A DNA stretch of 12,941 bases. It comes from Fidelibacterota bacterium. GTDB taxonomy: Bacteria; Fidelibacterota; Fidelibacteria; Fidelibacterales; Fidelibacteraceae. The first letter of the stretch is position 1; each line of letters starts with the position of its first letter. The DNA is taken from assembly GCA_034723415.1 (NCBI GenBank), contig JAYEOX010000004.1, forward strand, positions 1 through 12,941. Direction: 5' to 3'. Below, in pieces: positions 6,001 to 9,000 of the stretch. Position numbers: made by a program.

Positions 6001-9000
6001 TTATCGAAAAAAGAATTCCATAAAATGATGAAATGGATTTTTAAAAGTATAATAGTGAGAATAACATTTATAATATTAACTACATATTTATTAATTCATT
6101 TTGATGTTGTGAAACCAATTCCGTTTATTTTAATTTTATTTGTATTCTATCCTCTTCATCAGTTTATCGAAATAAGATATATCAAAAATTGGGTAAAATA
6201 AAAAAAGGAATAATTATGAATTTTTCGAGTGCTATAAAAAATTCGTGTATTGAATTAGATTTTAAAGCGGACAAAAAAGATGAAGTATTAAAAGAAATTG
6301 CTCGTTTGGCAAAAAATGATCCAATATTAAAAAATGTAAAAGAAAAAACAATTTATAAAGCATTGGCAGATAGGGAAGATGTTGGTTCAACCGGTTTCGG
6401 GAATGGAATTGCTATTCCACATTGTACGATTGAAAATATTTCCGATTTTGTTGTCGGCGTATTAGTAATTCCGGATGGAGTTGATTATGATTCTATTGAT
6501 GGAAAAGAAACGAAAATATTATCATATATAATAGCTCCTAAAGAAAAGAAAAATGAACATATTAGAATTTTATCAAATATTTCAAAAATTTTACAACAAT
6601 CTGAAAATATAAAAAAAATATTAGAATCAAGTTCATCTGAACAAATAATTAATATTTTTTCTAAAGTGTTAGATAAAGGTAAAGATAAACAAAAAGAGAA
6701 AAAATACACAAAATTTACAATAATTATTCAGGATGAAAATTCTTTCTATGATATTTTAGAAATTTTTACTGAAATAAATGATTGCTTTTTATCAATTATA
6801 AATGCTGAGAATGCAAGTAAATATTTGTATTCAATGCCACTGTTTTCTCATTTTTGGAATGAAGAAAAAAAAGGATTCAATAGAATTATTTTAGCAATTG
6901 TTAATAATACTTTTGCGAATGACACATTAAGAAAATTGAATTTAATAATAGATTCTCTTGATAAAAATACAGGTGTATTGGTTTTATCGCAAGAAATTTC
7001 TTATATCAATGGTTCAATAAATTTATAAAATTATGAAAGGGAAATAATGCAGTCATTTTTTGCTAATTTAAATTTGTCATTACCAATATTATTGATAGTT
7101 GGAATAGTTGTCTTGATAAGTTTCTATATTGGCAAAAGTATGAAATATATAAGACTACCTTCTCTAATTGGCTATATGATCTTAGGTGTGATCTTTGGCC
7201 CTTCATTATTCAATTTATTAAATGAATCAGTGCAAGTATCATTATCATTTATTACGGAAATTGCTTTAGCATTAGTTGCATTAAGTATCGGATTTGAATT
7301 AAAATTATCTTCATTAAAAAAATTAGGAAGTGGAATTGTTTGGATAATTTTTGTTGAATCATTCGGAGCATTTATTTTGGTTTTTACAGCTGTTTTTTTA
7401 TATACAGGAAATTTACCATTGGCTTTGATCTTTGGAGGAATAGCTCCTGCCAGTGCTCCGGCCGGAACGGTCGCAGTTATTCAAGAATACAAAGCAAGGG
7501 GATTATTGACAAAATCACTTTATGCAATTGTCGGATTTGATGATGGACTTGGAATAATAATTTTTGGTTTTGCAGCAGCAATCGCCCGTTCGATTTTAAT
7601 ACATCAGACAGGAGTAGATACTGTTAGTTTTTTTGAACTGATCTGGCTTCCATTTAAGGAGATATTAATTAGTTTGGCTATTGGTGGCGGATTTTCGATT
7701 ATCATAAGTTTATTAGTTAGAAAACTAGAAAATTCTAGTGATATTCTGATAATATTGATTACTTTTATTTTTATATCTGTTGGAATTAGTCACATTTTTC
7801 ATATTTCAATAATATTAACTAATATGGTGGTGGGAATGATAATTGTAAATACGCAGGGTTTTTCAATTGTGCGTAAAATTAGTGAAAGATTACCTATTTT
7901 TATGCCATTACTTTTTATTTTATTTTTTACTTTAGCAGGAGCTAATTTATACATAAAGGCACTTCCATCATTAGGTTTGTTAGGAATTATATATGTTTTC
8001 GCGAGAGCGAGTGGTAAGTTTTTTGGTTCTAAACTTGGTGCTATAATTGGAAAAGCAAATGAAAATATTAGGAAATATGTTGGTTTGGGAATATTATCAC
8101 AAGCCGGTGTTGCAATTGGTTTAGCTATTATGGTAAAACAAGAATTCAAAGGATTAGGAAATGTGATCAATACTCAAGGAATTACAACCGGTGATAATTT
8201 AGGAGCTATAGTAATTACAACTGTTACTGCAACTTGTATATTTTTTGAGATCATTGGCCCAATTTTAACAAAATACGCTCTGACGAAAGCAGGTGAAATT
8301 AACAAATCAAGATAATTATTTTAATTTTCAAAGTTCTAATTATTATTTACAGTTTTACGGAATACTTATTCATAAATAAAAAAATAAAATGTATATTGTT
8401 TTATTGAATGAATTTTTGTAAAATTATAACTATGGAAGAGATATTAAATGTTACATAACTTTAAAATATATTTTAGGAATGATCAATGAAAAGTAATAGA
8501 CGACACTCAAGAGAATTATGTTTGCAAGTATTATATTCATATATAATGACTTCGGATCCGATTAACCAAATTATTACTAATATTAAGAATATTGATTTAG
8601 AGGCAGCAACTGAATATGATGAAGATTTATTAGAAATGTTGGTTATTAAAACGATTAAAAATATGGAAATGATTGATGATAAAATTAAACAGAGAGCAAA
8701 AAACTGGAATTTTGATAGAATAGCATTGATAGATAAATTAATATTAAGGCAGTCAATTGCGGAATTATTATTTTGTGATGATGTTCCACCAAGAGTTACG
8801 ATCTCTGAAGCAATTGAATTAGGGAAAAATTATTCTACAGATGATAGTCATATATTTATCAATGGGATGCTTGACAGAATTTATCATGATTTTATTGAAG
8901 AAGGTAAATTGTTGCCAAGAATTGATTCAGAAGAAAAAAAAGAAGAAAAAGAATAAAATAATTGAAAAATATTTGATAAGGATAGTTTATGTTTAGTAAT

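Follow-up and report, generated by a model that had tools for sequence, protein, structure and literature searches.

Control of cation/proton antiporters by a regulatory phosphotransferase system (PTS) has so far been described in one case, that of PtsN and YcgO in E. coli. According to two reports (PMC11808508; bioRxiv 10.64898/2026.08.14.744764), PtsN in its unphosphorylated state attaches to the CorC domain of YcgO, a K+/H+ antiporter, and inhibits the exchanger, His73 of PtsN lies within the interface, and phosphorylation or the H73E substitution abolishes binding. PII proteins provide a second type of transporter control, so far only for trimeric carriers: GlnK acts on AmtB and SbtB on SbtA (PMC10710835). 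Kef-type CPA2 exchangers (KefC/KefF, KefB/KefG) are under a cytosolic regulatory module. Finally, in EIIA–permease fusions such as LacS IIA (PMC10710835), the phosphorelay ends on a regulatory domain of the transporter and not on a sugar EIIB.

Here we describe a locus that resembles each of these systems in part. It lies in a stretch of 12,941 nucleotides (the window) that spans positions 1 to 12,941 of contig JAYEOX010000004.1 from a Fidelibacterota bacterium (assembly GCA_034723415.1), and it comprises a gene for a PtsN-type EIIA domain fused to a PII-like domain and, immediately downstream, a gene for a membrane-only cation/proton antiporter. We consider it likely that the fusion protein acts as a regulator with two domains and gates the adjoining antiporter in response to the phosphorylation of a sugar-less PTS; through this pairing the cell probably adjusts its ion and pH balance to its metabolic state. 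Our literature search found no publication on the module or on its C-terminal domain.

The locus shares with PtsN–YcgO (also CvrA, a CPA1 protein) a PtsN-type EIIA with a phosphorylatable histidine, a target (here presumed) from the Na_H_Exchanger superfamily and a PTS that serves regulation and not sugar uptake. However, YcgO has its own RCK and CorC domains, whereas here the antiporter is membrane-only and the regulator carries an additional PII-like domain; the genes are adjacent, and the antiporter resembles NapA/CPA2 more closely than CPA1. The module may work like PtsN–YcgO, although its build differs. As for GlnK–AmtB and SbtB–SbtA, a beta-alpha-beta-(T-loop)-beta-alpha-beta domain is encoded beside the putative target transporter, and the long loop is its best-conserved element. 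By contrast, GlnK and SbtB are described as stand-alone nucleotide-binding trimers, whereas the domain here is fused to EIIA, its window type lacks the nucleotide motifs, and the presumed target belongs to a dimer-forming family. A CPA2-like exchanger under a cytosolic regulatory module recalls the Kef-type proteins, but RCK/KTN is found in neither antiporter of this genome and regulation would fall to a protein of its own that is linked to the PTS. In LacS and in an amino-acid permease of the genome described here, EIIA is fused in cis to the carrier, unlike the separate protein with a PII-like domain found at this locus.

Organization of the regulator and antiporter genes

The fusion gene and the antiporter gene lie on the same strand, the latter beginning 18 nt downstream of the former. 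AAAGGA is found 7–12 nt upstream of the ATG of the fusion gene, and AAGGGA precedes the ATG of the antiporter gene. The principal features are as follows.

6216–7028, + strand: EIIA(Ntr)–PII-like fusion gene, 270-residue product, stop codon included (ORF reading)
6234–6665, + strand: PTS_EIIA_2 domain of PtsN type, residues 7–150 (Pfam, 110.7 bits, cut-off 27)
6420–6422, + strand: CAT codon of His69 in GIAIPH, predicted phosphorylation site (sequence reading)
6666–6695, + strand: interdomain linker, Lys/Asp-rich, residues 151–160 (low pLDDT)
7047–8315, + strand: cation/proton antiporter gene, 422 residues, membrane-only (Pfam Na_H_Exchanger, residues 23–400)
7539–7544, + strand: codons of Asp165–Asp166 (GFDDG), predicted aspartate pair of the ion-binding site (conservation)

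The fusion protein has 271 homologues at E ≤ 1e-3, and 270 residues is the most frequent length among the 120 listed. In the AF2 model of the whole protein (pLDDT 83.6), residues 154–161 of the linker region fall below a pLDDT of 50. A search of PDB sequences places the EIIA domain nearer to PtsN than to sugar-specific EIIAs: its top four solved relatives are all PtsN/IIA-Ntr (E 1e-28 to 1e-22; 1a6j at 1.4e-28), whereas sugar (mannitol-type) EIIAs match at 1e-11 or weaker. The NCBIfam PtsN equivalog model TIGR01419 is not passed (94.6 bits; cut-off 138.7), nor is NF008145 (70.8 against 221). On these scores the fusion protein is PtsN-like without being a PtsN equivalog. Arg53, His69 and His115 are invariant in an alignment of 27 EIIA sequences, and His69 is kept in all 70 fused proteins, bearing out the survey's finding of an EIIA(Ntr)-type domain with the histidine of AIPH.

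The antiporter matches Na_H_Exchanger at 98.4 bits (cut-off 26.2), and its nearest solved structure is NapA (E 1.2e-12). Exchangers of the CPA group, NapA among them, form dimers, and a pair of adjacent aspartates is the mark of the CPA2 type; both Asp165 and Asp166 reach a conservation of 90% or more across 32 antiporters. The NCBIfam CPA2 model TIGR00932 is not passed (30.6 bits against 238.3). By sequence comparison the antiporter belongs to a distinct, unnamed subfamily, nearer to NapA/CPA2 than to CPA1. Pfam finds the transmembrane domain at residues 23–400 of the 422-residue protein and nothing like the CorC/RCK region on which PtsN docks in YcgO.

The whole genome has exactly two Na_H_Exchanger genes, each paired with a fusion gene. 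In the second pair, on contig C85, the regulator is 33% and the antiporter 32% identical to its counterpart in the window, and the antiporter gene lies upstream of the regulator gene, unlike in the window. Pfam detected no RCK/KTN or other cytosolic regulatory domain in either antiporter, so that both RCK-less neighbours first noted in the survey were recovered.

The C-terminal domain and its relation to PII

The C-terminal part of the fusion protein was predicted by AF2 to adopt a ferredoxin-like beta-alpha-beta-beta-alpha-beta fold with a long beta2–beta3 (T-) loop.

6696–7025, + strand: PII-like domain, residues 161–270 (AF2, Foldseek, VIA-align, hhalign, and a sequence bridge via split homologues)

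Modelled alone (pLDDT 84.0, pTM 0.73), the domain has the order beta1-alpha1-beta2-(T-loop-like insert)-beta3-alpha2-beta4, with strands at residues 164–171, 191–196, 223–230 and 254–261 and an insert of 26 residues between beta2 and beta3. Foldseek returned 72 PDB matches at E ≤ 1e-3, of which the best was 4usi_A (1.8e-5); all of the top ten are PII chains, and PII, PstA and DUF3240 make up nearly all of the upper rows. The match to 4wk1, of the PstA/DarA group, has an E-value of 1.7e-4 and TM scores of 0.59/0.69. CorC_HlyC and RCK_C are absent from the Foldseek and VIA-align rows shown.

Direct sequence searches with the domain of the window returned little. Pfam gave no credible match on the C-terminal 110 residues at E up to 10, no P-II match in the fusion protein even at that threshold, and no match of the domain to the DUF3240 or PstA/DarA families; a profile of the domain found nothing significant among PDB sequences (best E 0.49), and ESM Atlas no usable match for residues 161–270. 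The link is made by relatives. Among fused members, L065 matches Pfam P-II at E 7.8e-4, and among the split, stand-alone homologues described below, L095 reaches 30.4 bits (cut-off 25). The profile of the fused domain picks up stand-alone forms (E 3e-13 and 8e-14), and the profile of these forms finds the C85 paralogue of this genome at 3e-11. The C-terminal domain is tied to PII by sequence because a stand-alone form both passes the P-II threshold and matches the fused-domain profile. A joint alignment of the fused domain, the split forms and PII is in register across all six secondary-structure elements. Since the protein of the window has no P-II match itself and is linked via the split forms, we call its C-terminal part a divergent PII-superfamily domain and not a member of the P-II family. 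The survey had proposed a PII-like fold unseen by Pfam on the basis of AF2 and Foldseek; the sequence bridge now adds to both.

The domain has 454 representatives (clusters) at E ≤ 1e-3 and no Pfam family. Among the 150 representatives listed, 113 are 255–300 residues long, 36 are shorter, many of them visibly beginning within an EIIA domain, and 1 is longer. These lengths suggest that the domain is nearly restricted to the EIIA-fused architecture. One relative with a P-II match in a 254-residue frame (L094) was considered as a further EIIA fusion and proved to be a tandem PII-like protein beside a membrane protein.

A proposed model of antiporter control

The two domains suggest a route by which the PTS might act on the antiporter. 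Phosphoryl groups would pass from PEP via EI and HPr to His69 and so set the phosphorylation state of the regulator; fed in this way, His69 would report PEP/pyruvate and energy status. HPr kinase (HprK) would provide a second input, at HPr. If the sign is the same as in E. coli PtsN–YcgO, the unphosphorylated regulator would bind and restrain the antiporter, and phosphorylation would free it. The PII-like domain could dock on the transporter or relay the state of EIIA, in either case via a hydrophobic PLFxxFW loop, and would replace the CorC/RCK domains of YcgO and the RCK/KTN domains of Kef-type CPA2 proteins. A complex prediction for antiporter and regulator, made from two 32-row alignments and with no controls, scored 0.01 against a mark of 0.32, a value that counts neither for nor against binding.

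If true, this mechanism would join two signalling systems in one protein or three-gene set, explain the control of a large class of antiporters that have no regulatory domain, and give a role to the sugar-less PTS of many uncultured lineages. A more far-reaching version can be advanced tentatively, although we think it less likely than not: that a PII-superfamily domain was captured by the PTS, so that a PtsN-type phospho-switch and a PII-type sensor/docking module gate dimeric, regulator-less CPA2 antiporters as a widespread alternative to RCK/KTN in more than ten mostly uncultured phyla, combining PEP/pyruvate with an adenylate or 2-oxoglutarate-type signal and breaking the trimeric-only rule.

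The loop motif and the ligand site of PII

Conservation in the C-terminal domain centres on the insert, in which the motif YLxxxPLFxxFW occupies the position of the PII T-loop.

6837–6845, + strand: codons of Pro208–Leu209–Phe210, the core of YLxxxPLFxxFW, at the PII T-loop position (conservation)

The proline and the phenylalanine of the motif are at least 90% conserved in the fused-domain alignment, and the motif is also found in the split stand-alone forms. Its distribution varies with the gene context: of 53 proteins encoded next to an antiporter, 51 have P-x-[FY], as against 7 of 14 from other contexts.

PII proteins bind nucleotides through GxG at the base of the T-loop, GDGKIF in the B-loop and RxR near the C terminus; Arg101 and Arg103 of the last, together with Lys58, are among their functional residues. 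In the joint alignment these three nucleotide-binding motifs are missing from the domain of the window: the window type lacks the lysine of GDGKIF, the C-terminal basic residues (the arginines of RxR) and GxG, and of the PII motifs retains only the B-loop glycine and, at the position of Lys58, a basic residue. A Lys or Arg before an invariant C-terminal glycine is additionally kept in the C85 type and in the split forms.

These residues bear on whether the C-terminal domain is a second sensor in its own right, which would bind an adenine or cyclic nucleotide or 2-oxoglutarate, in the way of PII, SbtB or PstA, and so let the protein integrate two signals, PTS state and ligand, before it acts on the antiporter. 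The chain of homology to PII would be consistent with such a sensor, as would the basic residue at the Lys58 position, kept in all forms, the B-loop glycine, and the Lys or Arg of the C85 type and the split forms, which stands at PII Arg101/Arg103. The window type, however, has lost the rest of the site, its sequence allows no inference of a ligand, and the best-conserved positions of the domain are hydrophobic residues of the loop, more like a protein–protein contact than a ligand site. A second sensor is possible, though in our view doubtful.

Gene neighbourhoods and split forms in relatives

The neighbourhood analysis covers the best 80 of 595 loci. Full-length proteins are encoded at 68 of these; in 3 the sequence ends too near the gene, which leaves 65 informative loci. 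In 51 of these 65 the fusion gene has the antiporter gene as its immediate same-strand neighbour, at a distance of −1 to 51 nt, in line with the adjacency given in the survey. The paired loci come from Marinimicrobia, Cloacimonadota, Spirochaetes, Planctomycetota, Verrucomicrobiota/Kiritimatiellales, KSB1, Delongbacteria, Fibrobacterota-like genomes, Aegiribacteria, Fermentibacteria and Zixibacteria. Regulator type (window or C85) equals antiporter type in all 51 pairs, one of which (L067) was judged by eye. Distances between antiporters correlate at r 0.58 (partial 0.40) with distances between PII-like domains and at r 0.47 (partial 0.10) with distances between EIIA domains. The antiporter would thus co-vary more with the PII-like domain than with the EIIA domain, a result that is suggestive only, because it carries no species-tree control.

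The 14 other informative loci have different neighbours. In seven, of Planctomycetota type, the genes read lipoprotein – regulator – T2SSF-like – RNase P protein; those on either side of the regulator gene in the Planctomycetota loci, with products of about 585 and 320 residues, were considered as EI and HprK and turned out to encode a coiled-coil lipoprotein and the T2SSF-like protein. Five have a BadF/ROK-type ATPase downstream (identified by Pfam in L043 and L061 and by ORF layout in the rest), one an amino-acid permease and one nothing relevant. At L048, a sixth locus of the BadF/ROK group, the sequence ends after a downstream ORF of 280 residues.

In rare relatives the EIIA and PII-like parts are separate genes. 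Genome G054 has the order EIIA – PII-like – antiporter. In metagenomes, a stand-alone PII-like gene adjoins the same antiporter family in 14 of 17 loci; 11 of these 14 contain all three genes, 10 as EIIA–antiporter–PII and 1 as EIIA–PII–antiporter. In G025, G026 and L130–L132 the split pair lies within the series EF-G – HIT – ... – hisS, with no antiporter nearby. That the split genes stay together in two orders makes the presumed functional link between regulator and antiporter stronger. The three-gene sets and the split forms that link the domain to PII by sequence are new here. Among longer proteins, a search with the C-terminal region found no match; the full-length profile found only fructose EIIABC and EI-HPr-EIIA proteins and one HAD-EIIA-PII-like protein, and no fusion to an antiporter. 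A missing fusion of regulator and antiporter would speak weakly against a dedicated partnership.

These contexts might instead reflect a pleiotropic PtsN-like regulator with several targets, for which the antiporter is a co-expressed neighbour or one client among others. The 14 loci with a T2SSF-like protein, a BadF/ROK-type ATPase, an amino-acid permease or no relevant neighbour would fit such a protein, as would the split pairs near EF-G, HIT and hisS, and multiple targets are given for E. coli PtsN in the review PMC13104625. It would leave the adjacency in 51 of 65 loci and the matching types in 51 of 51 pairs to be accounted for, along with the pairing of both Na_H_Exchanger genes of this genome and the two orders of the split genes. 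The loop motif is also often missing in the other contexts, so that partner-specific subfamilies fit better than a general regulator, although phylogeny confounds the comparison. We regard pleiotropy as unlikely and retain the dedicated control of the adjoining antiporter as the preferred reading.

Structural likeness to generic ferredoxin-like folds

A further explanation concerns the fold itself: the C-terminal domain could be a generic ferredoxin-like module (ACT- or RAM-like), with a likeness to PII that is convergent or confined to the level of the fold. In VIA-align the first rank is DUF3240 (3ce8; Z 10.1, 88 aligned residues), closely followed at Z 9.6–8.6 by the uncharacterised protein 2nzc, EF-G-family domains and de novo designs; generic ferredoxin-like folds (an EF-G domain, ACT, a carboxypeptidase pro-domain) come within at most 1–2 Z units of the PII-like matches. 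Identity to PII structures is 6–15% (Foldseek), and 10–15% for DUF3240 and the c-di-AMP receptors PstA/DarA, which are among the best structural matches and, unlike the fused domain, are stand-alone proteins. An hhalign comparison of the fused-domain alignment with PII is in register (E 0.0034) with a probability of 9.6%, and the domain profile has no significant PDB sequence match. Against this stand the stand-alone homologues that pass the curated P-II threshold and match the fused domain at E of about 1e-13, the P-II match of L065 and the register of the joint alignment over six elements. PII-type VIA-align alignments extend over 84–95 residues including the loop, as against about 75 for the generic folds, and the upper Foldseek rows are nearly all PII, PstA and DUF3240. 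A merely generic module is thus quite improbable, and descent from the PII superfamily is the reading we keep for the domain.

PTS complement of the genome

The PTS of this genome appears to lack a sugar branch, as the survey had also concluded. EI and HPr are encoded on contig C134 and HPr kinase on C135, whereas PTS_EIIC, EII-Sor, EIIC-GAT and PTS_IIB, the four EIIB/EIIC families searched, have no match in the assembly (94% complete, 182 contigs). The phosphodonors are present, and none of these four families provides a cognate EIIB/EIIC. The only EIIA domain besides those of the two fusion proteins is fused to an amino-acid permease of 618 residues on C27, again as previously noted. That the EIIA domain of the window serves an ordinary sugar PTS whose EIIB/EIIC genes are missing from the assembly is highly improbable: an assembly of this completeness and fragmentation would allow for such genes, but four families are without a match, the nearest solved relatives are PtsN and not sugar EIIAs, and the 270-residue architecture with its antiporter neighbour is constant across many phyla.

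Upstream context

Two further features precede the fusion gene.

1362–5850, + strand: V-type ATPase genes B, D, I and K (Pfam/NCBIfam)
5851–6201, + strand: small membrane protein of 116 residues with a weak ATP-synt_I match (Pfam)

A scan of positions 1000–9100, which are AT-rich, gave 55 promoter-like sites (50 expected) and 1 terminator-like site (2.1 expected) and was uninformative in DNA of this composition. The gene for the 116-residue protein follows the V-ATPase K gene with a gap of 0 nt and precedes the fusion gene with a gap of 14 nt; among relatives, only the two closest (L004 and L057) keep it there. These two relatives are also the only ones among the 80 loci in which V-ATPase genes lie upstream of the fusion gene; a general linkage to the V-ATPase was rejected on these grounds, and the arrangement is lineage-specific.

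Architecture and conservation of the regulator–antiporter pair

The gene for the EIIA(Ntr)-PII-like fusion protein (hereafter the regulator) is followed on the same strand by that for a cation/proton antiporter. Open reading frames (ORFs) and Pfam matches agree with the coordinates and descriptions of both genes in the survey's finding.

Genes of the window
123–1049 (−): PD-(D/E)XK nuclease (PDDEXK_13/REase-ARP, E 3e-85), at the contig start and just upstream of V-ATPase B
1362–5850 (+): V-type ATPase genes, in the order B-D-I-K
5851–6201 (+): small membrane protein, 116 aa
6216–7028 (+): regulator ORF, 270 aa, beginning 14 nt past the small membrane protein gene
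7047–8315 (+): antiporter ORF, 422 aa, beginning 18 nt past the regulator gene
Downstream of 8315: nusB, secA and a dimethylargininase gene

The antiporter matches Na_H_Exchanger at residues 23–400 and no other Pfam domain. It thus lacks an RCK/KTN domain, as the survey had claimed, and any other cytosolic domain as well.

The loci used were the best 80 of 595 confirmed matches in one-genome-per-species contigs, of which 68 hold a full-length fused gene; these loci are mutually related, not independent, samples. A same-strand antiporter gene adjoins the fused gene in 51 of the 68, with gaps of −1 to 51 nt (one pair, L067, was assigned by eye, its antiporter frame overlapping the regulator gene). 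Forty-five pairs are of the window type, with the antiporter downstream, and six resemble the second pair of this genome (on contig C85; hereafter C85 type), with the antiporter mostly upstream. Three loci end too near the regulator gene to show its neighbour, and the remaining 14 have other neighbours: seven are of a Planctomycetota type (lipoprotein, regulator, T2SSF-like protein, RNase P protein), five have a BadF/ROK-type ATPase downstream (by Pfam for L043 and L061, by matching ORF layout for the others), one has an amino-acid permease downstream and one has no relevant neighbour. A sixth locus of the BadF/ROK group, L048, ends past a 280-aa downstream ORF. Regulator and antiporter are of the same type in all 51 pairs, which indicates that the two genes were duplicated and retained as a unit. 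Na_H_Exchanger genes number exactly two in this genome, each paired with a regulator.

Several loci depart from the simple pair. One carries a tandem regulator-antiporter-regulator-antiporter array (L028), three have one regulator and then two antiporter genes (L007, L029 and L062), and in L065 antiporters flank the regulator on either side. In the Planctomycetota-type subfamily (L039, L046, L047, L052, L059, L060 and L074), the upstream lipoprotein is a coiled-coil protein of ~585 aa that has no Pfam match, and the T2SSF-like protein is a membrane protein.

The EIIA domain is PtsN-like

PTS_EIIA_2, at residues 7–150, is the sole Pfam domain of the regulator, as first reported. When a profile of 32 family members was compared with solved structures, the four best relatives were all IIA-Ntr/PtsN proteins (1a6j, E 1.4e-28, then 4gqx, 3urr and 2a0j), and mannitol-type EIIAs scored 1e-11 or weaker. 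Scores against the NCBIfam PtsN models fell short of the cut-offs (94.6 bits versus 138.7 in one case), and we therefore describe the domain as PtsN-like, not as an equivalog. All 70 fused proteins that were aligned have the phosphorylatable His69 (GIAIPH), and neither R53 nor H115 varies among 27 sequences. Public annotation calls the fusion protein 'PTS sugar transporter subunit IIA'.

The C-terminal domain is probably related to PII

No Pfam family matches the C-terminal domain. AlphaFold2 models of the whole protein (27-row alignment) and of residues 161–270 (34-row alignment) reached pLDDT values of 83.6 and 84.0, respectively, with a pTM of 0.73 for the domain, and show the order beta-alpha-beta-(26-residue loop with a short helix)-beta-alpha-beta. 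Foldseek returned 72 PDB matches at E≤1e-3 (best 4usi_A, 1.8e-5), the head of the list being PII almost throughout, plus PstA, DUF3240 and one designed protein. An independent search with VIA-align over 48,161 chains ranked DUF3240 first (3ce8, Z 10.1, 88 residues aligned) and included CPII, PII, SbtB, CutA and the putative PII-like protein 1o51. Generic ferredoxin-like domains (EF-G-family, ACT, carboxypeptidase pro-domains and designed proteins) lie within 1–2 Z units, so that by fold alone the domain is ferredoxin-like with PII-type proteins as its best match, and membership is unproven.

A sequence bridge to PII, new in the present analysis, bears on this point. A profile of the fused domain (A2; residues 161–270), run over 151 genomes of the phylum, found one short frame in each of two relatives, G025 and G026 (116 and 134 aa; E 8e-14 and 3e-13), and the Pfam P-II model matched the same two places. 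In both, a separate PtsN-like EIIA gene (product 174 aa as called in G025, 156 aa in G026) and a stand-alone gene of 115–124 aa follow one another, the end of the first overlapping the start of the second. The G026 stand-alone protein exceeds the curated P-II threshold (30.4 bits versus 25, E 5.3e-7), and one fused member, from L065, matches P-II at E 7.8e-4. A profile of three stand-alone forms in turn matches C85-type fused domains (E 1e-11 to 1e-17; 3.2e-11 for the paralogue in this genome). Direct comparison of the fused-domain alignment with ten canonical PII sequences from relatives (hhalign) was in register at E 0.0034, with a probability of just 9.6%. A joint alignment of fused, split and PII sequences keeps register across all six elements. 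All forms retain the B-loop glycine as well as a basic residue in line with PII Lys58, and a K/R ahead of the invariant C-terminal Gly is kept in split and C85-type forms; the window type has lost this K/R together with the B-loop Lys and the GxG at the T-loop base. The C-terminal domain is thus probably a divergent member of the PII superfamily, which should stay outside the P-II family and from which a ligand should not be deduced.

In a scan of 1.84 billion cluster representatives, 454 proteins carried the PII-like domain at E≤1e-3; canonical PII proteins were evidently out of reach of the A2 profile. Among the 150 matches listed, 113 are 255–300 aa long with the domain C-terminal, 36 are shorter, many visibly beginning within the EIIA domain, and one is a 432-aa fusion with a response-regulator receiver domain. 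In this last protein (P0018) the receiver domain lies ahead of EIIA-PII-like, and in P0267 (536 aa) an N-terminal HAD-like hydrolase region does so, its Pfam match being below cut-off. Each is a single cluster, and both extended forms could be gene-call fusions.

Many split forms keep the same three parts together

In G054, another relative, genes for an EIIA (153 aa), a PII-like protein (111 aa) and an antiporter (403 aa) are consecutive. The PII-like protein matches A2 with an hhalign probability of 93.5% (E 2e-7), and the antiporter is 35% identical to that of the window. Searching metagenomes with the stand-alone profile yielded 17 loci, and in 14 of them the PII-like gene adjoins the same antiporter family; all three genes are visible in 11 of these, in the order EIIA, antiporter, PII-like (ten loci) or EIIA, PII-like, antiporter (one). 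The trio is kept through fusion, fission and gene shuffling, which we regard as the strongest genomic evidence for cooperation among them.

Stand-alone forms also occur in an antiporter-free conserved cluster (EF-G, HIT, EIIA, stand-alone PII-like, zinc-ribbon+DUF2007 protein, hisS), seen in the split locus of G026 (L095, 1109–2281 (−)), in L101 (4394–7413 (+)), L130 and L132. DUF2007 is annotated as a putative signal-transducing protein.

PTS and PII complement of the genome

The PTS without EIIB/EIIC proposed by the survey was recovered: genes for EI and HPr lie side by side on C134, that for HPr kinase lies on C135, and four families searched (PTS_EIIC, EII-Sor, EIIC-GAT and PTS_IIB) gave no match in this genome. 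Canonical P-II (GlnB/GlnK) gave none either. As the assembly is 94% complete in 182 contigs, EIIB/EIIC and P-II are best described as not found, their absence being unproven. EIIA_2 domains number three: one in each of the two fusion proteins, and another attached to an amino-acid permease of 618 aa.

The permease fusion (G000:C27:33129-36536, locus L003; ORF 1465–3321 (−)) has a C-terminal PTS_EIIA_2 with GLAIPH, which makes it the third transporter-linked end of the PTS. Locus L051 has a fused EIIA-PII-like gene immediately upstream of an AA_permease_2 gene. Of the genomes searched, canonical P-II occurred in just 1 of 24 within the same family and in 12 of 16 from other families of the phylum. 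In the relative G005 (L094, 1072–1836 (+)), a 254-aa protein matches P-II at 38 bits and is by eye a tandem PII-like protein; its gene directly follows that of a polytopic membrane protein (at least 318 aa) and may thus form another PII-like and transporter pair.

A possible mode of antiporter control

Conservation within the PII-like domain is highest in a hydrophobic motif, YLxxxP(L/V/I)FxxF(W), which occupies the place of the PII T-loop; its P and F are at least 90% conserved across A2. Known PII proteins bind their partners through the T-loop (see also PMC10710835), and we therefore propose that this loop makes contact with either the transporter or the active-site face of EIIA. P-x-[FY] occurs in 51 of 53 antiporter-adjacent proteins versus 7 of 14 in other contexts, a comparison confounded by phylogeny, and also in split forms. 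In the Planctomycetota type the motif is altered (for example, PLFAAASNHDH). Across 27 window-type pairs, antiporter distances correlate better with PII-like-domain distances (r 0.58, partial 0.40) than with EIIA-domain distances (r 0.47, partial 0.10), which is only suggestive because the species tree is uncontrolled.

The closest characterised system is PtsN–YcgO of Escherichia coli. There, PtsN in its unphosphorylated state docks with a Kd of 188 nM on the CorC domain of YcgO, a CPA1 K+/H+ antiporter, and thereby inhibits efflux; His73 lies at the interface, and the H73E change abolishes the interaction (PMC11808508; bioRxiv 10.64898/2026.08.14.744764). By contrast, the window antiporter has neither a CorC nor an RCK domain, and it is the regulator that carries an extra domain. 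By analogy, phosphate passing from PEP through EI and HPr to His69 would set the state of the regulator, the unphosphorylated form would bind and restrain the antiporter, and the PII-like domain would supply a docking or relay function; we regard this as the best reading and as more likely than not. What the data establish is the architecture, the conserved residues, the gene complement and the association of the genes; binding, its sign, the transported ion and any ligand are inferred.

Precedents exist for the control of a cation/proton antiporter by PtsN and of transporters by PII-type proteins. In the literature searched, with subscription-only papers outside its coverage, we found PtsN–YcgO work and PII reviews and no description of an EIIA-PII-like fusion or of its pairing with antiporters; in a 2026 PTS-Ntr review, 'fused', 'fusion' and 'PII' occur nowhere in the text. 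That literature describes neither the fusion of both nor the bare antiporter partner nor how broad the family is.

Among the loci compared, a V-ATPase operon precedes the regulator gene in the window's lineage only. This position, together with the brine labels of matching sequencing runs, would be in keeping with a function in Na+/H+ or K+/H+ balance. The runs are four brine-metagenome DNA runs from one study, which contain 94–97% of the sampled words of 5400–8400, and the source of the assembly may be among them; no RNA runs were listed. A V-ATPase catalytic A-like subunit is encoded on a separate contig (G000:C2:4910-5572, ~1.3 kb from the end of C2), and in the related locus L057 an M48-like peptidase gene, not A, lies upstream of B; V-ATPase A and B thus seem to be unlinked in this lineage.
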